From positions 43,329 to 107,328 of the forward strand of contig CAVSKS010000008.1 in the NCBI GenBank assembly GCA_963728605.1: 64,000 nucleotides of DNA, in the 5' to 3' direction. Both the position numbers and the translations under genes were made by a program. The stretch's first letter is position 1, and each line of letters opens with the position of its first letter. This document shows, piece after piece, positions 11,604 through 62,513 of this stretch. The DNA is from an uncultured Chloroflexia bacterium. Its GTDB lineage: Bacteria; Chloroflexota; Limnocylindria; Limnocylindrales; CSP1-4. Under the pieces are notes generated by a model that did no database searches, was not told the DNA's origin, and was given only the letters and a program-made list of their open reading frames with translations.

Positions 11604-11632
11604 TTGACACCCGGGGGGGCCCAACCTACGAT
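11604..11632 (+). promoter_or_regulatory. candidate sigma-70-type promoter for glmU: TTGACA-N17-TACGAT
   Basis: Exact TTGACA at 11604-11609, a 17-nt spacer, then TACGAT at 11627-11632. It lies ~100 nt upstream of the glmU GTG. Confidence 0.5.
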
Positions 11633-50538: not shown

Positions 50539-51822
50539 TCAGGGGAAAGCGAGCCGTTGCCAACTCGCGAAATCGGCCCGACCGAATCCGGGTACGTCCG
50601 GTATCGCGAAGCTCGTCATCGGCGTGATGCCGAGCGGATCGAGGATCGCGACGATCGGTTGACCGCCACCATTGCGCCCGTCGACGGCTAGCACGTGTCG
50701 GGCGTCGGGTGACCAATGTGGGGAGAACCAGTCGCCTTCTTCGCTGATGTGGTCGGCGTTCGAGCCGTCCGCACGGGCGACCATCACCTGCGTCACGTCG
50801 CCCGGTTCCTGGCTCAGCCAAGCGATGGAGAGACCATCGGGCGACCAGGTTGGCGCGAAGTCGCTCCCTCGGGTGTTGACGATGCGGACCTCCCGTTGAC
50901 CATCGAGTCCGACAGTCCACAGATACTGCCCTTCGTCGTTCGGGCCGGCGCTGTACATGATCGTGGTCCCATCTGGCGACCATTCCATGCTGTCAAAGCC
51001 CGGAACGGCGTCATGCGTGACGCGTCGCTCCCCCGTGCCGTCGGTCCCGATGACGTGGATCCCGATGGAGGCCTGCCATCCCTTCATGAACGCGATGGTT
51101 GTCCGGTCAGGCGACAGGATCGGGGACCAGTTGTTCCGCCGGTCGGTCGTGAGTTGGCGGCGGGACGAGCCATCGGTCGCCGCAAGAAATACCTGGTCGA
51201 AGTCGCTGACCTTCCGTGAATACACCACCCACTTACTGTCGGCCGACCAACTGATGGGACTGGGGCTCTCGACGTCGGCGTCGAGGACGATCGCGTTGCT
51301 GCCGTCGGCGTTCGCAATGACGATGTCGCCCCAGTCCTGCCATTGCGGCCTGGAGTCCACGGCTGACAGACGCTTGAACGCGATCCTCGTGCCATCTGGC
51401 GAGAACGCCGGAAACCCGTCGATCCGTTGATCGGACGTCAACCGAGCGCGGTTGGAGCCGTCCGGATTGGCGGTCCAGATGTCGCCGTCGGCGATGAAGG
51501 CCACCAGGCCCGGCTCGGCGAGTCCGAATGGCGGTGGCAGGCGGCGCTGCGACCCAACGATGACGATCGCCACGGCGAGGGCGAGCAGCAACCCGAGGAT
51601 GATCAGGATCGGAGCCAGGCGCTGACCCGTCTCGAACCGCCACGGGCGCGGCCCGGGAAGCCACCGCTCGGGGAGCAGCCAGCCCGGCACCGGACGGGCC
51701 CGGCGCGTGCGCGACAGCGCCCCCTCGAGCACCTGGTCCGCCGCCGGGCCATGGGCGCGCTCGTCGAGCCAGGTCACCATGAGCTGGTCGAGGGCGGCGT
51801 CGGCGAGCCGTTCGCGGGTCAT
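50539..51822 (-). CDS. single-pass membrane protein with periplasmic TolB-like PD40 beta-propeller, putative anti-sigma partner
   Basis: Its ATG overlaps the ECF sigma stop (ATGA at 51819-51822). One TM helix, then repeated SPDG/WSPD PD40 motifs. Confidence 0.65.
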   Translation of the reverse strand: MTRERLADAALDQLMVTWLDERAHGPAADQVLEGALSRTRRARPVPGWLLPERWLPGPRPWRFETGQRLAPILIILGLLLALAVAIVIVGSQRRLPPPFGLAEPGLVAFIADGDIWTANPDGSNRARLTSDQRIDGFPAFSPDGTRIAFKRLSAVDSRPQWQDWGDIVIANADGSNAIVLDADVESPSPISWSADSKWVVYSRKVSDFDQVFLAATDGSSRRQLTTDRRNNWSPILSPDRTTIAFMKGWQASIGIHVIGTDGTGERRVTHDAVPGFDSMEWSPDGTTIMYSAGPNDEGQYLWTVGLDGQREVRIVNTRGSDFAPTWSPDGLSIAWLSQEPGDVTQVMVARADGSNADHISEEGDWFSPHWSPDARHVLAVDGRNGGGQPIVAILDPLGITPMTSFAIPDVPGFGRADFASWQRLAFP

Positions 51823-52373
51823 GCTGTCCGCCCTTCGCCGGCAGGCGTGGTGCGTGCGTCGGCTTCGAGGGCCGCGCGCATCTGTTGCATCGCCCGATGG
51901 AGCCGCGACCGGACGGTACCGGTCGGCCAGCCGAGGACGTCGGCCGCCTCCTCCGGGCGAAGACCCGCGTAGTAGTACAGGACGATCACCGCCCGGTGGT
52001 TGACGTCCAGTTGCCGGAAGCCGCGATCGAGCTGGTCCCGATCGAGGAGCCGACCGGTCTCGTCGGGTTCGGGTGCATCGAAGAGGGGGAGATGCAGCTC
52101 GCGGCTGCCCCGGGAGCGAACCTTCCGTGCCTCGCGATGGCACTCGTTGATGAGCAGTCGATGCAGCCAGGCATCGAAACGGTCGGGATCGCGCAGTCCC
52201 CGAATGTGCCGCCACGCGGCGACAAGGGCCTCCTGGGTGGCATCCTCCGCCGCCGGTTCATCGTGGAGGATCAACCGAGCAATCACCAGGAGACGACCGA
52301 CCGAGACGCGCGCCAGTTCGCTGAACGCGTCGTGATCGCCGCTCATCGCCCGCTCCACGAGATCCCGTTGCAT
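51819..52373 (-). CDS. ECF (group 4) RNA polymerase sigma factor
   Basis: Region 2 (DATQEALVAAW, FDAWLHRLLINE) and region 4 (EAADVLGWPTGTVRSRLHRA). Confidence 0.85.
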   Translation of the reverse strand: MQRDLVERAMSGDHDAFSELARVSVGRLLVIARLILHDEPAAEDATQEALVAAWRHIRGLRDPDRFDAWLHRLLINECHREARKVRSRGSRELHLPLFDAPEPDETGRLLDRDQLDRGFRQLDVNHRAVIVLYYYAGLRPEEAADVLGWPTGTVRSRLHRAMQQMRAALEADARTTPAGEGRTA

Positions 52374-52510
52374 CGGGCCTCCGGGGTGCGCGACCGATCT
52401 GGTCGTGCTACAGCCTATGAGTGGGACCGCGGGCTGGCTATCTCCCGAATCGCTCGCCGCAACGGCTACCCAGGCTGGCGAATACCCCCGAGGGGTATTG
52501 ACAAGGGGGG

Positions 52511-52539
52511 TTGTCAAGCGGGCCGAATTGCGGTAGAAT
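52511..52539 (+). promoter_or_regulatory. candidate promoter TTGTCA-N17-TAGAAT for the extra sigma-70 gene
   Basis: Hexamers and the 17-nt spacer read directly. The same architecture occurs at 58750-58778. Confidence 0.5.
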
Positions 52540-52550
52540 TCAGGTCCGAT

Positions 52551-52573
52551 GGCGTGTCAAGACTTGACACGCC
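52551..52573. promoter_or_regulatory. perfect palindrome GGCGTGTCAAG-A-CTTGACACGCC (copy 1)
   Basis: 11-bp arms and a 1-nt centre, starting 12 nt after the -10. An identical 23-mer occurs at 58791-58813. Confidence 0.8.
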
Positions 52574-52716
52574 TCATGTCATGTCCGGGTCACGAGGCGG
52601 GAGACCCGGGCGGCGCCAGGCGGTCCCGGCGGGGGACGCCAGGCGGGATGGAGACCGCGAGAACCGGTCTGGTCCGTTTGGGCCGCATCGGACGAGAACG
52701 CGCTGCGGAGTTGCTT

Positions 52717-54363
52717 GTGATCGATAACGAACTGACTGTCAAGACCACCCGACGGCATCGGACCGATGCGGGTCGGAAGAGCGCGGCCGCCGTGCTGGAG
52801 CCGGAGATCGCGGTCGAAGCGGTCGAGCTGCTGGCTGCCGAGGTAGGCCTGCCGGCCGACGCCGTCCCGGTGATGGATCTTCCAGCCGAGGCGCCGGACG
52901 TCATCGACCCCGCGGATGTCGACGAGCCGACGACCGCGGAGCTCGAGGAGGCGGAAGAGGTCACGCCCGACGAGATCGACATCGACGATCCCGTTCGGAT
53001 GTACCTGCGCGAGATCGCGCGCGTGCCGCTGCTGACCGCCGAGGAGGAGGTCGTCCTCGCCAAGGGGATCGAGCTCGGCGAGCAGATGGTCGTCGCCCCG
53101 TGGAAGGCGATCGTTTCGCTTCACGAGTGGACGCTCCACGAGACCGAGTCCAAGACCCGTTCGCTCAAGCCGCAGTACCGGCTGCCGTTCGGCGACGAGT
53201 CGCACCGGATGCTCCGCGCCGCACTCGCCGACGACGGCGCGCTGGACCTGCTGGTCACCGCGCCGGCCTTCGGCTTCGCCGCCGCGGCCAAGGAAGCGCC
53301 CAGCGACCACGTCAAGGAGCTGATCGGCGAGGCCCGCAACCTGCGGGCGATCTACAACGAGCGGCTCGACGTGGACGCCTTCGTCAACCTGCTCGATCGG
53401 GCGTACCTGGCCGTTCATAACGGCGACCTCGAGTGTCGCGACAACCCGGCCCTCCGGGCGCTCTACGACTGGACGCGCGACGCCGTCGCGTACCCGGCCC
53501 TCGAGCGCTGGATTGGTGCCGGCCACGATGCCGGCCTGCTGGCCGACATGGGCTACGACCCGGACGCCGTCGGGACCAGGAAGCCGCTCAACCAGCCGGG
53601 CGAGGTCACCCGCCTCGGCCGGCAGGCCAAGGACCACCTGACCAGCGCGAACCTGCGGCTGGTGGTCTCGATCGCCAAGAAGTACCCGAACCGCGGCATG
53701 AGCATCCTGGACCTGATCCAGGAGGGCAACGCCGGGCTGATCCGTGCGGTCGAGAAGTTCGAGTACGAGCGAGGCTTCAAGTTCTCGACGTACGCGACGT
53801 GGTGGATCCGCCAGGCGATCACCCGGGCCATGGCCGACCAGAGCCGGACGATCCGGATCCCGGTCCACATGGTCGAGACGATCAACCGGATGATCCGGAC
53901 CACCCGAGAGCTCCAGGGCCGGCTCGGTCGACAGCCGACGGTCGAGGAGGTCGCCGCGGTGATGTCCGAGACATCGGAGGTCGTGGTCACCCCGGACAAG
54001 GTCCGCGAGATGATCAAGATCCGCCGCGAGCCGATCTCCCTCGAGACCCCGATCGGGGAAGAGGAGGACTCGGCGCTGGGTGACCTCATCGAGGACACCG
54101 ACGCGGTGGCCCCCCTCGAGGCTGCCACGCAGCAGCTCCTCAAGGAGCAGGTCGATGCCGTGCTCGAGTCGCTGAGCGGTCGCGAGCGGCGCGTCCTCGA
54201 GCTCCGGTTCGGGCTCGCGGATGGTCGCGCCCGGACCCTCGAGGAAGTCGGCCGCGACTTCGGGGTGACCCGCGAGCGGGTCCGCCAGATCGAGGCGATC
54301 GCGCTGCGCAAGCTGCGCCACCCGTCCCGGAGTCGCAAGCTCCGCGAGTACATGCTCGACTGA
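52717..54363 (+). CDS. group-1-like sigma-70 factor (extra RpoD paralog) with a large insertion between regions 1.2 and 2
   Basis: [46 protein letters not shown] and [23 protein letters not shown] 52717 lies 6 nt after GGAG. In-frame ATGs at 52648 and 52549 are alternatives. Confidence 0.85.
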
Positions 54364-54377
54364 CCCGACCGAAGACC

Positions 54378-54411
54378 ACGCCCGGTCCTGCAGCGCAGGA
54401 CCGGGCGTTTT
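54378..54411 (+). terminator. intrinsic terminator of the extra sigma gene
   Basis: A 14-bp perfect stem (ACGCCCGGTCCTGC/GCAGGACCGGGCGT), a 3-nt loop, then TTTT. Confidence 0.8.
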
Positions 54412-54426
54412 GATTCCCGTGCCCGG

Positions 54427-54617
54427 CTTGCGCCCACGGCAAGTAAGCGAGCCCCCGATGCGTCGGGACGGCCGCTCGAGGCCGGAATCCTCGCCGGAGG
54501 GCGCCCTCCGTTGCGCGAAGCGCAAGGAAATTCAGCCCTGGGCGGTTTGGGCTCCCACGCTTGCACCCGTCGCAAGCTCAGCGTCGGTGGGGCTTCGGTA
54601 CTTGCACCAGCCGCAAG
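54427..54617. repeat. array A of four (C)TTGC-N7-GCAA(G) hairpin/palindrome units
   Basis: Units at 54427-54443, 54511-54525, 54559-54577 and 54601-54617, read directly. Confidence 0.75.
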
Positions 54618-54642
54618 GTGCGAGACGCCGGAACGCGAACTC

Positions 54643-55020
54643 TCAGGCCGGCTCGAGGATCAGGAAGTCGTTCACCTGGATCACCCCCAGGACCAGCCGG
54701 ACGATCCACGGGACGAGCTGGCGCGACGGATCGTGGAGCCGTTCCGGCGCGGTCAGGCGAACGTGGCGCCGCATCGTCTCGATCTCGCAGCCGCCGGCGG
54801 CCAGGACGTTCTTGACCCATTCCGCGTCAGGGCCGTAGGTCAGCGCCACCACGTACCGACCGTCGCGGCGGAAGATGTTGATCGGCGTCCGCCGGACGGT
54901 CCCGGACCGCCGGCCGACATGGGTCACGATTGCGAACCACGGCAGCCAGCCCGCCACGTGGCGGAGGATCGGGTTCGTGAAGCGGAGATTGATGGCCGCC
55001 ACGAAGCGAGGAATTGGCAT
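54643..55020 (-). CDS. DUF385 / deazaflavin-dependent nitroreductase-family protein
   Basis: HVGRRSGTVRRTPINIFRRDGRYVVALTYGPDAEWVKNVLAAGGCEIE is the characteristic family pattern. ATG 55020. Confidence 0.7.
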   Translation of the reverse strand: MPIPRFVAAINLRFTNPILRHVAGWLPWFAIVTHVGRRSGTVRRTPINIFRRDGRYVVALTYGPDAEWVKNVLAAGGCEIETMRRHVRLTAPERLHDPSRQLVPWIVRLVLGVIQVNDFLILEPA

Positions 55021-55101
55021 CGGTTCGAGTCTACGCGCCGTGAACCACGCGGTACGATGCGCGCCGGCGGCGATTTCTTGAAGCGCGAGAGGGGAGCGGG
55101 C

Positions 55102-57060
55102 GTGGCCCAGACGTCGGGCGGCGCGGAACGGGAGCGGTCGGCGAACGCCACGTTCGCCTGGATCGCCACGGCCCTTGCCGCGTGGGTCGTGATCGGCGTC
55201 TTCCTCGTCGTCCGGGCGCTCAACCTCGGGCTGACCGAGGACGTGGCCGTCTCGCCGTATCACATCGTCGGGTACGCCGCGCTCGCGGCCGTCCTGCTGT
55301 TCTCGATCGGCCTCGTGATCCTCGCCGTCCGTCGGGGGCGGTCTTGGCGCGAGGCGTTCCCGACGGGCTACGGGGTGATGGGCATTGGTGTCCTGGCAGC
55401 CGTGGCCTACATCGTCCTCGACGGGATCTGGCAGAGCGTGGCCGGGATCGGCATCGGGATCGAAGGCGGCTTTGCCCCGACGCGATTGCTCCTGCTGGCG
55501 GCGGTCGCACTGATCGCGGTTGGGCCGCTTCGGGCGGCCCTCCGCGCGGCCACCGCGGGCGGCCCCGTGCACCGCTGGCCGGCCGTGATCGCCGCCGGCC
55601 TCGTTCTGGCGATGGTCGCCAGTCCGGGCGGCTTCCACCCGGCCGTCAGTCCATGGCTCGAGGAGCCCGACGACACCATCGAAGACGACGGCGAGATCTG
55701 GGTCATGAATGCCGATGGGACGAACCAGACCCGGCTGATCGAGGCGCCCGGCAATGAGATCCACGCCGTGGCTCCCGCCTGGTCGCCGGACGGCACCCAG
55801 ATCGCGTGGACCCGCTGGACGCCGAACCAGACCGGTCGGGACTTCAATGCCGACGTCTGGATCGCCGCGACCGACGGCAGCGGCGCCCGGCCCCTCGCGG
55901 AGGGCGCCGAGTGGCAGTGGATCCCGCACTGGTCGCCCGATGGTGTCTGGATCTCGTACACCGTCGAGCCCGACCCCAGCCTCCAAATCGGCGATCCGGG
56001 CGGTCCGCGCCCGGGCGGTCCCATCGCGCCGAACGACCAGGGCTTTGCCATCGGCCCGGCTCCGTTGGTCACGGGCGGCACCGGCGCGGACCTGTGGCGC
56101 GTCCGGGCCGACGGCACGGGCGAACCAGAACGGCTGACCGAAGTCGCGGGCGACGATCGGGCAGGGGATTACTCGCCGGACGGTAGCCAGATCACGTTCG
56201 ATGCCACCCGCGACGGCAACACGGAGATCTACGTGATCGATGCCGACGGCGCGAACCCGCGCCGCCTGACGGACGACGGCGGCGAGGACTGGGCGCCCGA
56301 CTGGTCCCCGGACGCCAGCCGGATCGCGTTCAACTCCGACCGCAACGGCAACGACGACATCTTCGTGATGGCCGCCGACGGGTCGGGCCTGGTCCAGGTG
56401 ACCAATGACCCGATGGACGAGCGTGGAGCGAGCTGGTCGCCGGACGGCCAGACGATCGCCTATGCCGCGTGGCCCGACATCGAGCCCGAGATCTACGCGA
56501 TCGACGTCGACGGGACCAACCCGCGGAACCTCACCCGCAGTCCCGGCACGTGGGATGGCGAGTGGGACGCGGGCGACTGGACGCCCGACGGGCGGTTGGC
56601 GTTCGCCCGGGGCGGCCACTGGCCAACGTTCGCCCAGCCGCTCGTCCGTGAAGATCTGGGCCTCGCGACGCTGCTCATCCAGGCGGCCCTCGTCGCGTTC
56701 ATGTGTCTCCTGCTGCTCCGAATCGGGCCGCCGTTCGGTGCCTTCACGGTGCTCCTGGGGCTATCCACGGTCCTCGCCGCGAGTGGCCTGGACGACTACC
56801 GGTTTGCGATCGCCGCCGCCCTCGCCGGCCTGATCCTCGATCTCCTGGTACCCAGGTTCCCGGCCCGCTCCCGACCGGCGGTCGTTGGGGCGGGCAGTGC
56901 CGCCCTGTTCGTGCTCTCGGTCATCGTGACCGTCCTGTTCACGAGCGGCCTCGTCTGGCGACCCACCCTCGCCTTCGGCGCGGTCCTCGCGGCCGCGGCG
57001 ATCGGCTGGGGGCTGACGCTGCTCAGCGGACCATCCCAACGTACCCCCCAGGGGTCTTGA
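55102..57060 (+). CDS. membrane protein with a PD40 (TolB-like) beta-propeller between N- and C-terminal TM bundles
   Basis: GTG 55102 lies 5 nt after GGGGAG. ATG 55057 is the alternative. Several N-terminal TM helices, repeated WSPDG PD40 units, then several C-terminal TM helices. Confidence 0.7.
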   Translation: MAQTSGGAERERSANATFAWIATALAAWVVIGVFLVVRALNLGLTEDVAVSPYHIVGYAALAAVLLFSIGLVILAVRRGRSWREAFPTGYGVMGIGVLAAVAYIVLDGIWQSVAGIGIGIEGGFAPTRLLLLAAVALIAVGPLRAALRAATAGGPVHRWPAVIAAGLVLAMVASPGGFHPAVSPWLEEPDDTIEDDGEIWVMNADGTNQTRLIEAPGNEIHAVAPAWSPDGTQIAWTRWTPNQTGRDFNADVWIAATDGSGARPLAEGAEWQWIPHWSPDGVWISYTVEPDPSLQIGDPGGPRPGGPIAPNDQGFAIGPAPLVTGGTGADLWRVRADGTGEPERLTEVAGDDRAGDYSPDGSQITFDATRDGNTEIYVIDADGANPRRLTDDGGEDWAPDWSPDASRIAFNSDRNGNDDIFVMAADGSGLVQVTNDPMDERGASWSPDGQTIAYAAWPDIEPEIYAIDVDGTNPRNLTRSPGTWDGEWDAGDWTPDGRLAFARGGHWPTFAQPLVREDLGLATLLIQAALVAFMCLLLLRIGPPFGAFTVLLGLSTVLAASGLDDYRFAIAAALAGLILDLLVPRFPARSRPAVVGAGSAALFVLSVIVTVLFTSGLVWRPTLAFGAVLAAAAIGWGLTLLSGPSQRTPQGS

Positions 57061-57064
57061 CAAC
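56929..57064 (+). repeat. direct repeat copy 1 (last 43 codons plus stop of the TM-PD40-TM gene, plus TTGACAA)
   Basis: Aligns without gaps to 58610-58745. I count about 20 mismatches in 135 nt. Confidence 0.8.
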
Positions 57065-57168
57065 GCGCGGGGAGGGGAGGGGAGGAACGTGGCCTAGCCG
57101 TCGGGCGCGCCCCCGACGACCCGAAGCCGATGCCCGACACGCCCGTTGCCAGGCAGGCTCCTACGCTG

Positions 57169-58527
57169 TCAGCGCATCAGCCGGTAGAGATGCCAGCGGT
57201 CGGGAACGCCCTTCAACTCGCGCTCGCCAGCATCCTCGAAGGTGATGCCAGAACCCGAAACGAGGTCCCTGACCGTTTGGGAAACCAGAACTTCGGACGG
57301 GGCCGCGAGCGCTGCGATCCTCGCGCCGACGTTAACCGCGTTTCCTCCGACCTTGCCAGCGATCCTCTCGACCTCACCGGTGTGCACCCCCGCGCGCACC
57401 TCCAGTCCGAAGTCTCGGACCGCGTCGCCGATAGCCTGTGCGCACCGGACGGCACGCGCCGGACCGTCAAAGGTGGCGAAGAATCCATCCCCAGCCGTGT
57501 CCACCTCGATCCCTCGAAAGCGGCCGAGGAGGGCTCGGACTGCACGGTGATGGCGATCGACGAGATTGCCCCAGCCGCGATCGCCAAGCTCAGCGGCCTT
57601 AGCCGTCGACCCGACGATGTCGGTGAACATCACGGTCGCTAGTACGCGGTCGAGGTCCGCCTCTTGGTGGCCGACCTCCGCAACGAACCGCTCGATCTCG
57701 CCCAGCAGCTCGTCCTGGTTCCCCGACCAGTAGAAGTGATCGACGCCGTGGAACGAGACGAAGCGTGCGCCGTGGATCTGATCCGCCATCCAGCTCGTTT
57801 CCTCGGCGGTGAAGAGCAGGTCGCCGTCGCGGGCGAGGAGAAGTGTAGGGACGTGGACCGCCGGCAACGCCGGGCGGACATCGATCCCGCGGTTCATCCG
57901 CTCGAGCGCGATCGCAGCTCCCGGGCTCGCGGCGTGACGAAGATAGTCCGCGAGCCAACGGATCGTATGGTCATCGTTCGCGAGCGTGGGCGCGCCCCAG
58001 TCTCGCAACTCTTGCGCCGCGAACTCCCGCGTGCCCCACATTCGCTCGATGCTCTCGACGTAGCGCTCGTGCTCATCGTCGGTGGCCACCGGGAACGGGT
58101 AGTCAATCGTCGGTCTCCAGCATGCGCTGGTCCCGAAAAGCACAAGCGCGATGGTCCGCTCCGGATAGGTCGCGGCGAACAGCGTCGCCATCGGACCACC
58201 TTCCGAGAAGCCCAGCACGACGGCGCGTTCGGAGCCGACCGCGTCCATGACAGCCCTCGCGTCATCCATCCGGACCTCGAGAGACGGGAGCCGATCATCA
58301 GACACGCGGTCCGAGAGTCCGGTGCCACGCTTGTCGAAGAGGATCAACCGTGAGAACGCTGCCAACCGGGAGAGGAATCGTGCAAGCGTTGGCTCCTTCC
58401 ACATCAGCTCGATGTGGGTAGTCCATGCCATCACGAAGACCAAATCGACTGGAGCATCGCCCACGGTCTGGTACGCGATGTGAACGCCATCGACGGTCTT
58501 CGCGTAGTTGGTCTCGGGAACCTCCAC
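57169..58527 (-). CDS. alpha/beta-hydrolase fused to a class III adenylate/guanylate cyclase (LipJ-like architecture)
   Basis: N-terminal hydrolase fold (VLGFSEGG nucleophile elbow). C-terminal cyclase domain (VMFTDIVGSTAKA, DTAGDGFFATF, GVHTGEV, G.AVNVGARI). Confidence 0.85.
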   Translation of the reverse strand: MEVPETNYAKTVDGVHIAYQTVGDAPVDLVFVMAWTTHIELMWKEPTLARFLSRLAAFSRLILFDKRGTGLSDRVSDDRLPSLEVRMDDARAVMDAVGSERAVVLGFSEGGPMATLFAATYPERTIALVLFGTSACWRPTIDYPFPVATDDEHERYVESIERMWGTREFAAQELRDWGAPTLANDDHTIRWLADYLRHAASPGAAIALERMNRGIDVRPALPAVHVPTLLLARDGDLLFTAEETSWMADQIHGARFVSFHGVDHFYWSGNQDELLGEIERFVAEVGHQEADLDRVLATVMFTDIVGSTAKAAELGDRGWGNLVDRHHRAVRALLGRFRGIEVDTAGDGFFATFDGPARAVRCAQAIGDAVRDFGLEVRAGVHTGEVERIAGKVGGNAVNVGARIAALAAPSEVLVSQTVRDLVSGSGITFEDAGERELKGVPDRWHLYRLMR

Positions 58528-58609
58528 GTGAGGATACTGAGCGCACGCCAGTGCCGACGCAAACGGCGCTGCTCGGTCAATCCCCGCTCACGAGAGATCT
58601 GGCCGTCGT

Positions 58610-58745
58610 ACCCTGCTGCTGACCAATGGCCTGGCCTGGACGGACACCCTCGCCTTCGGCGCGATCCTCGCGGCAGCGGCCATCGGCTGGGGGCTGACGC
58701 TGCTCAGTGGACCATCCCAAAGTACCCCCCAAGGGTCTTGACAAG
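58610..58745 (+). repeat. direct repeat copy 2 (orphan gene-end fragment plus TTGACAA)
   Basis: Translates in the matching frame to TLLLTNGLAWTDTLAFGAILAAAAIGWGLTLLSGPSQSTPQGS-stop. No upstream gene body. Confidence 0.8.
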
Positions 58746-58749
58746 CACC

Positions 58750-58778
58750 TTGTCAAGAGGTTGACACGGGCGTAGTCT
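58750..58778 (+). promoter_or_regulatory. candidate promoter TTGTCA-N17-TAGTCT for dnaG-rpoD
   Basis: Hexamers and spacer read directly. An additional TTGACA lies in the spacer (58761-58766). Confidence 0.5.
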
Positions 58779-58790
58779 TCCGCGCGAGAT

Positions 58791-58813
58791 GGCGTGTCAA
58801 GACTTGACACGCC
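58791..58813. promoter_or_regulatory. perfect palindrome GGCGTGTCAAG-A-CTTGACACGCC (copy 2)
   Basis: Identical to 52551-52573. It starts 13 nt after the -10. Confidence 0.8.
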
Positions 58814-58820
58814 CTCCGTC

Positions 58821-60749
58821 ATGCCCGGCGAGGTGCACTTGGCAGTCGGCGTTGCGGCCGAGGTGAAGAGCCGCTTGAACGTCGTCGACGTGGTCGGCGA
58901 GACGGTCAGCCTCAAGAAGGCGGGGACCACGTTCAAGGGCCTCTGCCCGTTCCACGGCGAGAAGACCCCGTCGTTCGTGGTCACGCCTGCCCGCGAGTCA
59001 TGGCACTGCTTCGGCTGCGGGCTCGGTGGCGACGTCTTCAGCTTCGTGATGCAGCGCGACGGCGTGCCATTCCCTGAGGCGCTTAAGCAGCTGGCCGCCA
59101 AGGCCGGCGTCGAGCTCGACGAGCGGACCCGCCGGGACGACGTCCGGAAGGCCCGCCTGCGCGAGGTCATGGAGGCGGCGATCGCCTTCTACCACGCCGT
59201 CCTTACGGCATCGAAGACGGGACAGGCGGCGCTCGAGTACCTCCGGGGTCGCGGCTTCACCGATGCCACGATTGAGACCTACCAGCTGGGCTGGGCGCCG
59301 GGTGGCTGGGACACGATGAGCCGGCAACTCCTGGAGCGACGCCAGATCCGGCCCGAGGAGCTGGCCGAGGTGGGACTGACCACGGCCCGCCAGGGCGGCC
59401 GGGGCGCGTACGACCGCTTCCGCGAACGGGTCATCTTCCCGATCCGCGACCAGAACGGCAGCCCGACCGGGCTGGGCGGCCGAATCCTGGCCGACGGCCC
59501 GGATCGCGGCCCGAAGTACCTCAACTCGCCGGCAACGCCGCTGTTCGACAAGAGCCGCAGCCTGTACCTGGTCGACAAGGCCAAGGGCCCGATGCGGAAG
59601 ACCGGCCAGGCGGTGATCGTCGAGGGCTACACCGATGCGCTGATGGCCCACCAGGCGGGCTTCGACACCGTCGTCGCCTCGCTGGGGACGGCGCTGACGC
59701 CGGGCCAGGTGGCGCTCCTGACGCGCTACGCCAAGCGCATCGCGCTGGCCTACGACGTGGACCCGGCGGGCGAGAAGGCGGGCACGTTCGGCGTCCAGGC
59801 GCTGGAAGCGCTGATCGGCCAGCTGGCCGTCGCCGACACCGGCATCGAGCTCGACGAGGTCCGTGTCGTGCGGCTGCCCGACGGCAAGGATCCCGACGAG
59901 GTCCTGCGCGACTCGCCGGATCGCTGGCGGGAAGAGGTCCGGACGGCGGAGCCGATCGTCGACTACCTCATCGACTTCCAGGCTCGCCAGGTCGATCTCA
60001 AGACGCCGGGTGGCAAGTCCCGGTTCGTGGACGCGATCCTGCCAACCGTCCGGGCCGTGCCCAATCCCGTGATGCGTGACGCCTACCTGGCACGGATCCG
60101 GCAGGTCAGCGGGGTGGAGGAGCGGACGCTCATCGAGATGCTCCACCGGCCGGCCCGTCACGGCGCCGACGCCGGACGGATCACCGCCGAATCGGTCACC
60201 GCCTCGCCGGATGCGCTGCCGATCGGCGAGATCCTGCGCTCGATCACCCGGACCGAACGGGACCTCCTGCGGCTGATGCTCCTCCGCCCCGACCAGCAGG
60301 TCCGGATCGCCGACGAGCTCGGGCCCGATCAGCTCCCCTCGACTGTCGCCCGGGAGGTCTACCGGACGATCGCCATCCAGCGGGCCTCGAACGACGAGGG
60401 CGTCCATCCGCCGTTCGACGCGACCGCACTCCTGGCGGCCCTCGACGACGAGACCGCGGCGCTCGTCCGGGCCCTGTACGCCCTCGACGGACCGAGTCCG
60501 CGGGACCTCGACCAGGGCGACGTGGATTACGTCATCGACAACCTGCTCCTCGATCTCGAGGAGGACCGGCTGTCTCATCGGACCGAGTTCACCCAGGACG
60601 CACTCGGCGAGGCGGAACGGGATGGCGACCGGCCATCGATCGACCGCCTGCTGCTGGAGCTCCGACAGCTCAACGAATCGCGCCGGTCGCTCGACCGGCG
60701 CCGCGACCAGACCCGCTACCTGACCCGACAGCTCGCGGGGCGCGCATGA
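58821..60749 (+). CDS. dnaG: DNA primase
   Basis: Zinc-ribbon CPFHGEKTPSF...CFGCG and TOPRIM VIVEGYTD / DPD motifs. ATG 58821 lacks a good SD. TTG 58839 (after GAGG) is the alternative. Confidence 0.9.
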   Translation: MPGEVHLAVGVAAEVKSRLNVVDVVGETVSLKKAGTTFKGLCPFHGEKTPSFVVTPARESWHCFGCGLGGDVFSFVMQRDGVPFPEALKQLAAKAGVELDERTRRDDVRKARLREVMEAAIAFYHAVLTASKTGQAALEYLRGRGFTDATIETYQLGWAPGGWDTMSRQLLERRQIRPEELAEVGLTTARQGGRGAYDRFRERVIFPIRDQNGSPTGLGGRILADGPDRGPKYLNSPATPLFDKSRSLYLVDKAKGPMRKTGQAVIVEGYTDALMAHQAGFDTVVASLGTALTPGQVALLTRYAKRIALAYDVDPAGEKAGTFGVQALEALIGQLAVADTGIELDEVRVVRLPDGKDPDEVLRDSPDRWREEVRTAEPIVDYLIDFQARQVDLKTPGGKSRFVDAILPTVRAVPNPVMRDAYLARIRQVSGVEERTLIEMLHRPARHGADAGRITAESVTASPDALPIGEILRSITRTERDLLRLMLLRPDQQVRIADELGPDQLPSTVAREVYRTIAIQRASNDEGVHPPFDATALLAALDDETAALVRALYALDGPSPRDLDQGDVDYVIDNLLLDLEEDRLSHRTEFTQDALGEAERDGDRPSIDRLLLELRQLNESRRSLDRRRDQTRYLTRQLAGRA

Positions 60750-60788
60750 GCGTCCCGGTCATCCCCGCACGCACTCCGGAGGACCGCC

Positions 60789-62513
<1,725 letters not shown>

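Follow-up and report, generated by a model that had tools for sequence, protein, structure and literature searches.

A palindromic promoter-leader module shared by two RpoD-type sigma factor operons in Ca. Limnocylindria: a putative DNA operator and RNA hairpin in one

Introduction

Why should two operons that both encode RpoD-type sigma factors carry the same 23-nucleotide (nt) palindrome just downstream of their predicted promoters, and is that palindrome read as DNA, as RNA, or as both? The question is raised by a 64,000-nt stretch from an uncultured Chloroflexia bacterium (GenBank assembly GCA_963728605.1, contig CAVSKS010000008.1, positions 43,329 to 107,328 of the forward strand), referred to here as the window, in which one copy of the palindrome precedes sigX, encoding an RpoD-type sigma-70 paralogue, and the other precedes dnaG and rpoD. 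A first-pass annotation had proposed that both copies belong to a promoter/leader module built on TTGACA/TGTCAA repeats and common to the extra sigma gene and dnaG-rpoD; the comparison with related genomes described below supports that proposal. The setting of principal-sigma levels is poorly understood outside a few model species, and this element offers a sharply defined handle on it: 15 invariant bases within a covarying hairpin, found in the genomes compared here only at two RpoD-type operons and kept in well above a hundred species of an uncultured and abundant class of soil and freshwater bacteria. The best explanation, in which we place about even confidence, is that the module acts as DNA operator and RNA hairpin together and co-regulates both sigma operons.

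Results

Two copies of one module

The palindrome GGCGTGTCAAGACTTGACACGCC is exact at both 52551-52573 and 58791-58813, where chance predicts none (0 matches in 100 shuffles, even with three mismatches allowed). The copy in front of sigX belongs to a module at 52482-52588 with the following features:

52482-52498, strand not given: dyad TAC-N9-GTA (ATACCCCCGAGGGGTAT), at about -65 to -49 from the predicted start
52498-52503, plus strand: upstream TTGACA hexamer (GTATTGACA), adjoining the dyad and 12 bp upstream of the -35
52511-52539, plus strand: sigX promoter TTGTCA-N17-TAGAAT (10/12 match), with the -35 TTGTCA at 52511-52516 (the minus strand reads TTGACA at 52512-52517) and the -10 TAGAAT at 52534-52539
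52551-52573, plus strand: 23-nt palindrome GGCGTGTCAAG-A-CTTGACACGCC, with its invariant 15-nt core at 52555-52569
52579-52588, plus strand: RYRTGTCCGG motif (here TCATGTCCGG), 5 nt after the palindrome

The palindrome is flanked on its 3' side by TCATGTCATGTCC or CTCCGTCATGCCC. An inverted repeat, TTGACAA-GGGGGG-TTGTCAA, occupies 52498-52517, and ATAC-N9-GTAT occurs only once in the window. The sigX promoter is the only sigma-70-type match returned by a consensus scan of 52000-59200 (7.2 kb); transcription is predicted to start near 52546-52548, and 52551-52573, judged by sequence, appears to double as an RNA hairpin of the leader (P1) and an operator on the DNA, with its centre near +16. The elements listed in the first-pass annotation all lie where it had placed them, apart from one TTGACA hexamer, given at 52733 and truly at 52737-52742, four positions away. 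Its ten TTGACA hexamers within three short patches were confirmed on recounting, and its rough expectation of about 8 for the whole window came out at 7.0 +/- 2.9 when computed, against 15 observed on both strands. Separately, TGTCAAGAC, which comprises the 5' arm of the palindrome, its centre and the first base of the 3' arm, recurs at 52737-52745 within sigX codons 7-10, 182 nt downstream of the leader copy.

The near-identical module that had been described upstream of dnaG-rpoD was recovered with the same 23-nt palindrome and the same offset of 69 nt from dyad to palindrome:

58722-58743, plus strand: degenerate dyad GTACCCCCCAAGGGTC (TAC-N9-GTc), then TTGACA at 58738-58743
58750-58778, plus strand: probable dnaG-rpoD promoter, TTGTCA (58750-58755), 17 nt, TAGTCT (58773-58778), read from the sequence
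58791-58813, plus strand: second palindrome copy, with its core at 58795-58809, 12 nt after the -10
58819-58828, plus strand: RYRTGTCCGG-type motif (TCATGCCCGG)
58830-58833: GAGG ribosome-binding site, followed by the probable dnaG start, TTG at 58839

This promoter was missed by the consensus scan because its -10 is weak; its geometry agrees with that of sigX and of 71 relatives, and its spacer holds a further TTGACA (58761-58766). The TTG start is probable by homology with two related loci (L040 and L052). An antisense promoter using the minus-strand TTGACA was rejected, as its partner hexamer, the -10 read in reverse complement (ATTCTA or ATGATG), has neither A2 nor T6. Elsewhere in the window, a promoter-like TTGACA-N17-TACGAT at 11604-11632 suggests that TTGACA is the ordinary -35 consensus of this organism.

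Distribution and geometry across relatives

A scan of one genome per species (185,579 species) for the 19-nt core CGTGTCAAGNCTTGACACG gave at least 118 loci, and the relatives were compared as 8-kb pieces. Of the 118 matches listed, 117 lie in module-bearing metagenome-assembled genomes (MAGs) of Ca. Limnocylindria type, almost all of them labelled Ca. Limnocylindria/Limnocylindrales or generically Chloroflexota. The listed loci and the window together hold 121 instances: 80 before dnaG(-rpoD), 36 before sigX, four at locus ends and one unrelated. Three of the locus-end cases (L016, L022, L031) carry the full module, and the fourth (L056) has the layout of a dnaG clade with a distal core. The module is thus kept upstream of the orthologues of dnaG/rpoD and sigX, a conservation that the first-pass annotation had left to be checked in relatives. 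It had also considered that the palindrome might be a repeat dispersed over unrelated loci; instead, 116 instances have a dnaG or sigX orthologue just downstream, and among the matches listed exact copies number at most two per MAG, always at dnaG or sigX. A dispersed repeat (REP- or MITE-like) is ruled out on the same grounds; the window likewise has two copies.

The one unrelated match (L110) is a different palindrome, TACGTGTCAAGACTTGACACGTA (25 nt, 2876-2900), in a 'Ca. Tenderia' MAG of 52% GC, where it lies in AT-rich intergenic DNA away from any sigma gene or dnaG. The match probably arose by chance or is unrelated, which fits the estimate of about nine chance matches for an 18-base pattern in 596 Gb. 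One MAG (CAWKJP01) holds two different module-bearing dnaG loci (L047 and L091), probably through strain mixture or bin contamination. At three further loci of one lower-GC lineage (L139-L141; DnaG 68-69% identical, 61-64% GC) only a decayed copy is present, so that the element is not universal in the class: the remnant, CGACAGG-T-CTTGACAC, lies about 50 nt upstream of dnaG with its 3' arm intact and its 5' arm decayed, a natural loss that could serve phylogenetic profiling of the binding factor. The element was not found in DnaG relatives at 40-48% identity. An Rfam cmscan of 52300-59000 at E values up to 10 gave only chance microRNA and small RNA matches, none of them on the palindrome. The palindrome sequence was not found in a literature search, and the Limnocylindria papers listed were, by title and abstract, ecological or taxonomic.

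The geometry of the module is fixed. Counted from the palindrome centre, the order is the dyad ATAC-N9-GTAT starting at -80, an adjoining TTGACA at -64, the -35 (TTGACA or TTGTCA) at -52, the -10 near -29 to -24, a gap of 10-14 nt, the palindrome from -11 to +11, and RYRTGTCCGG 5-6 nt beyond it; a subset of dnaG modules has a further TTGACA at -41, which places phased hexamers near -64, -52 and -41. Of the 36 sigX modules, 34 have the start of the dyad at -78 to -81 and 20 have that of the TTGACA at -62 to -65; of the 73 dnaG modules, 30 have the dyad starting at -78 to -81 and 45 the TTGACA starting at -63 to -66. A -35/-10 pair with a spacer of 16-18 nt, and with A2 and T6 in the -10, is present in 107 of 109 modules, 100 of them scoring at least 8/12; among the sigX modules, all 36 have a pair at or above that score with a 17-18 nt spacer. 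The gap between -10 and palindrome is 10-14 nt in 106 of the 107 scored modules. If transcription starts about 7 nt beyond the -10, as predicted, the palindrome would begin at roughly +4 to +8.

Covariation in the outer stem

Symmetry stops at 11 pairs: the pair at d11 is formed in 108/109 sites and the next, d12, in 20/109. The hairpin, P1, is 99% paired across 122 distinct leaders, and its predicted fold of -17.3 kcal/mol departs strongly from shuffled expectation at both copies (z -4.4 at 52551-52573 and -4.3 at 58791-58813). Covariation is confined to the outer stem, where it appears at two of the four outer pairs with a score that none of 500 shuffles reached: pair d10 is GC in 101 leaders, CG in 17, AU in 1 and GU in 1, and pair d8 is GC in 103, CG in 7, UG in 7 and UA in 3. 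The varying positions are still complementary in 120/122 rows. On a neighbour-joining tree of DnaG, d8 changed at least nine times; its variants come from a search blind to the palindrome, with the DnaG N-terminus against metagenomes, which gave 19 close relatives with the motif. The single-sided intermediates, at eight loci, are all U.G or G.U on the sense strand, and none is A.C. The centre base, too, is biased between strands (A 82, T 14, G 13, C 0) and changed at least nine times on the tree, and two loci have a 2-nt centre. Within a single MAG (VGPE01; L071 vs L107) the sigX site has the outer stem AACG/CGTC and the dnaG site GGCG/CGCC, which indicates that outer changes are specific to the site rather than a response to altered protein specificity. 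Covariation and wobbles in the outer pairs thus argue for an RNA hairpin a few nt from the predicted 5' end, and so for the 5'-terminal mRNA stem-loop that had been suggested as one role of the palindrome. An intrinsic terminator or attenuator was rejected: the terminator scan was empty at the palindrome, and no U tract follows the hairpin.

Beyond P1, six positions of RYRTGTCCGG are at least 90% conserved in the 122 leaders. In the sigX leaders, folding predicts that this motif, as RYRUGUCCGG, supplies the 5' side of another hairpin, P2 (window positions about 52583-52611). P2 is 82% paired in 19 sigX leaders when the structure is specified by hand and the alignment is not fitted to it; RNAalifold on a plain MAFFT alignment of the sigX leaders recovered P1 alone. 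In the dnaG leaders the motif may be a third, degenerate half-site (TGTCCGG vs TGTCAAG). The sigX leader also carries AGGCGG at 52595, 52618 and 52641, at exact 23-nt intervals, and in relatives UGGCGGA is located in the loops predicted for P2 and for a third hairpin; these repeats could be Shine-Dalgarno-like or a GGA-type protein-binding motif.

An invariant core

The inner part of the palindrome behaves differently. In the core TGTCAAG-N-CTTGACA, 14 positions are unchanged in about 150 sites, whereas the adjacent pair changed at least nine times. In 1.03 Mb of related DNA the 15-nt core occurs 149 times exactly, once with one mismatch and once with two. The single one-mismatch core (L052:5704) lies in a sigX leader and reads GGCGTGTCAAGAGTTGACACGCC, with the pair next to the loop broken. 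Whether the arms are conserved while the spacer varies was a test put forward at the outset, and they are: the arms are fixed and the centre base is free (A, T or G). Relative to the predicted start, the core is centred at about +16 to +18. A free loop centre within a fixed helix is the pattern of an operator and not that of a protein-bound RNA hairpin, and for the invariant 15-bp core the earlier suggestion of an operator for a dimeric protein is therefore supported.

Further copies of the core lie outside the hairpin. At 11 loci, namely L072, L111 and nine in one dnaG clade (L008, L034, L056, L059, L063, L066, L069, L082, L102), there is a further exact copy of the core 53-160 bp upstream of the one in the leader. 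These distal cores lie beyond the predicted -35 and are without complementary outer flanks. The centre-to-centre distances (129, 129, 132, 137, 139, 140, 149, 150 and 160 bp; also 53, 55.5 and 66 bp) step by about 10 bp, or about one helical turn, with a Rayleigh R of 0.74 at 10.5 bp (p ~0.0015; n = 12, shared ancestry ignored). In another clade TGTCAAG-GC-CTTGACA arises, at eight loci, from the -35 hexamer joined with one in the spacer.

The upstream dyad

The ATACCCC-CGA-GGGGTAT sequence at the head of the sigX module had been described as a hairpin, a reading that was not borne out. Across 78 homologous sites, ATAC and GTAT never vary and the C and G tracts are enriched. No covariation is seen at the inner positions: positions 5 and 13 occur in any combination (CG 23, CA 20, TA 20, TG 15). 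It is for this reason that the hairpin reading was rejected in favor of a DNA dyad. In some dnaG modules the dyad and its TTGACA unit are inverted. The type-2 operator of CsoR has the consensus ATATACCCCTNAGGGGTATAT, with a TAC-X9-GTA dyad (PMC3902906), and ATACCCCCGAGGGGTAT fits it, with TAC-X9-GTA around C and G tracts; by sequence resemblance alone, the dyad resembles a second protein site of the CsoR-operator type. It differs from CsoR/RcnR operators in lying about 10 bp upstream of a sigma-gene -35 rather than over a copper-efflux promoter. A tblastn search with CsoR queries gave no match in the window or in L001-L118, and the dyad was found with neither a repressor gene nor a metal-efflux position, the downstream genes being sigma factors.

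Gene context

The genes and repeats around the two modules are as follows:

start near 52373, minus strand: ECF sigma gene, divergent from sigX
52717-54363, plus strand: sigX, RpoD-type sigma-70 paralogue; GGAG precedes its probable start codon, GTG
54378-54408, plus strand: strong intrinsic terminator of sigX (terminator scan)
54511-57060, plus strand: PD40-repeat gene (849 aa)
56929-57063, plus strand: first copy of a 135-nt direct repeat, made up of the PD40-repeat gene's 3' end and TACCCCCCAGGGGTCTTGACAA
57169-58527, minus strand: hydrolase/cyclase gene
58839-60749, plus strand: dnaG (Pfam)
60789-62513, plus strand: rpoD (Pfam)

SigX is full-length, with Pfam regions 1.2, 2, 3 and 4, is 65% identical to RpoD, and shares with it a large insertion between regions 1.2 and 2. 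Both proteins have the helix VTRER(V/I)RQIEA, which corresponds to the -35-reading helix of E. coli sigma-70. The operon behind the second module consists of dnaG and rpoD (58839-62513). In close relatives (L028, L040/L017, L052) sigX, dnaG and rpoD are contiguous, so that the PD40 and cyclase genes look like an insertion.

The truncated first part of the module that had been noted at 57041-57063 is real, and is the end of the 135-nt direct repeat, whose copies at 56929-57063 and 58610-58744 are identical at 115/135 positions (85%); the dyad and TTGACA of the dnaG module sit inside the second copy. The repeats bracket the minus-strand alpha/beta-hydrolase and adenylate-cyclase gene (57169-58527), and the TGA stop of the PD40-repeat gene falls within a TTGACA hexamer. 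Within that gene, 132-nt periodic repeats at 55680-56534 correspond to the beta-propeller blades of the 849-aa protein. On the other side of sigX, the minus strand from 50539 to 52373 holds the ECF sigma gene and then a PD40 beta-propeller protein, which may be an anti-sigma factor; the ECF sigma/PD40 pair next to sigX is not conserved in most relatives.

Discussion

A dual role in the control of two sigma operons

One promoter-leader module would thus serve sigX alone and dnaG-rpoD, and it is kept across the class Ca. Limnocylindria. Its core, TGTCAAG-N-CTTGACA, is a putative operator for a two-fold-symmetric DNA-binding regulator, which would probably also use the single TTGACA hexamers spaced about 11-12 bp apart in the promoter and, in one clade, the upstream core in helical register, with looping of the intervening DNA. 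A single factor would in this way control how strongly both sigma genes are expressed, most likely as a repressor bound after the predicted start. Once transcribed, the core would be lengthened by four G/C-rich pairs into an 11-pair hairpin of about -17 kcal/mol, some 3-7 nt from the 5' end, that most likely shields the message from decay dependent on the 5' end; in sigX the hairpin may also organise a longer structured leader that includes P2.

Several observations weigh against this dual reading. No cognate DNA-binding protein was found among the neighbours of the module, which are not conserved on its upstream side, nor a syntenic regulator gene upstream of it (the largest open reading frame cluster, of seven loci, looked spurious), and the invariant core could be read instead by an RNA-binding protein. 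A rigid dimer would not easily accommodate a centre that is one nt in some sites and two in others. Only a few clades have the auxiliary cores, and the phasing of these comes from twelve distances uncorrected for ancestry. On the RNA side, the wobbles probably arose independently no more than two or three times. P2 has moderate support in sigX, where one pair covaries (AU 6, GU 6, GC 5) with a score that 38/500 shuffles reached; in the dnaG leaders its pairing is no better than in shuffles (7.4 vs 7.0 of 12), and it is not claimed there for that reason. Finally, the place of the palindrome relative to +1 rests on promoter prediction.

Competing explanations

The conserved features could be accounted for at the RNA level alone, as a leader motif that is bound by an RNA-binding protein or nuclease or that stabilises the message, with the upstream TTGACA sequences as ordinary -35 elements and the distal cores as incidental duplicates. 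Covariation, wobble pairs, the strand-biased loop base and the tolerated loop insertion are all consistent with this, as are the fixed distance from the -10, the conserved downstream motif and P2 in sigX. However, protein-bound RNA helices normally covary while their loops stay conserved, and here the pattern is the reverse, with 14 helix positions invariant and the loop centre free; moreover, the core recurs upstream of the promoter at steps of about 10 bp without its outer stem, and again as a composite of -35 and spacer. We regard this explanation as rather unlikely. Less likely again is the converse, in which a dimeric repressor binds all 23 bp as a strong operator and the RNA hairpin arises as an unselected by-product when the palindrome is transcribed. 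The perfect dyad symmetry, the position after the start, the invariant core and the auxiliary cores in phase would all be expected of such an operator, but it does not account for varying positions that stay complementary in nearly every row, for symmetric double changes at d8 on at least nine occasions, or for intermediates that are solely G.T on the sense strand. Outer stems that differ between two sites of one genome argue against co-evolution with a protein, and the distal cores are without outer symmetry. That the element is a functionless relic, and the two modules alike only through a duplication of rpoD together with the dnaG promoter region that gave sigX, would be consistent with the contiguity of sigX, dnaG and rpoD in L028, L040/L017 and L052 as the product of tandem duplication; it is scarcely credible, since the flanks have diverged while the core is identical in about 150 sites, in genomes whose DnaG proteins are only 50-60% identical, and the compensatory changes indicate selection, a pattern of conservation that already contradicts a relic.

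A different kind of explanation takes the likeness of the half-site to a promoter element at face value. Region 4.2 of RpoD or SigX, free or in holoenzyme, would bind the hexamers and the back-to-back -35 sequences of the palindrome, and at high sigma activity the sigmas would occlude, trap or pause transcription from their own genes. The repeated unit is indeed the -35 consensus, the recognition helix is kept in both sigmas, and, among the matches listed, the only targets are two RpoD-type genes; there is also a precedent in phage 82 PR', where region 4 causes early pausing through a -35-like element (cited in PMC3326312). Yet the same article places the displacement of region 4 at an RNA longer than about 15 nt (PMC3326312), and the top-strand hexamer, near +19 to +24, lies past that point. 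Read from the sequence, neither palindrome hexamer has a -10-like partner at 17 bp; the apparent helical phasing of the distal cores points to an oligomer that loops DNA, not to holoenzyme; and the covariation of the outer stem is left unexplained. In this plain form, feedback by sigma is improbable. A variant, in which one autoregulatory circuit reads the sequence twice, as back-to-back -35 hexamers in double-stranded DNA bound by sigma region 4 or a sigma-4-like regulator and as a transcribed hairpin that competes for or releases the factor, seems to us only slightly less so; if it were true, the cell would sense free principal-sigma activity directly at two RpoD-type genes.

Should the dual operator-hairpin reading prove correct, the module would clearly exemplify, in nature, a single palindrome under selection as DNA operator and RNA hairpin at once, and it would point to a new regulator, possibly with a CsoR-like input, acting on primary sigma expression. 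The element is, in addition, usable as a diagnostic sequence marker of the lineage.

Comparison with known systems

The HAIR operator of HspR is CTTGAGT-N7-ACTCAAG, and the upstream repeat of the dnaG module, CTTGACA-N7-TGTCAAG, shares its 7-N7-7 layout and five of seven bases per arm. An HspR site was nonetheless rejected: each arm departs from HAIR at two bases, the arms stand 6-8 nt apart, and many relatives have the hexamers as direct rather than inverted repeats. The gene order recalls the rpsU-dnaG-rpoD operon of E. coli, in which dnaG and rpoD are likewise co-transcribed under a complex control region with multiple signals; rpsU is absent here. To our knowledge, E. coli has no comparable palindrome, and no paralogous sigma gene with the same leader.

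With promoter-proximal pausing by sigma-70, of which the region-4 pause at phage 82 PR' is a case (cited in PMC3326312), the module shares promoter-like hexamers within the initially transcribed region. Known pauses rely chiefly on a -10-like element and come before +25, whereas here there are two inverted -35 hexamers, a nascent hairpin and no -10-like partner.

Likenesses are also found in the two functions that the dual reading combines. The leaders of E. coli ompA and of B. subtilis ermC and aprE also have a stable hairpin a few nt from the 5' end, and they too conserve pairing rather than sequence in the outer stem; the hairpin of the module most likely stabilises the sigX and dnaG-rpoD transcripts. 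We know of no such 5' stabiliser that has an invariant 15-nt core or is common to paralogous regulator genes. The lac O1/O3, gal OE/OI and deo systems place a palindromic operator just after the transcription start and a weaker copy upstream, at separations that differ by whole helical turns; the putative operator of the module and its distal cores may follow the same plan. In those terms the repressor of the present module is only putative, the auxiliary copy occurs in some clades only, the half-site is itself the -35 hexamer, and the primary operator is also a selected RNA hairpin.

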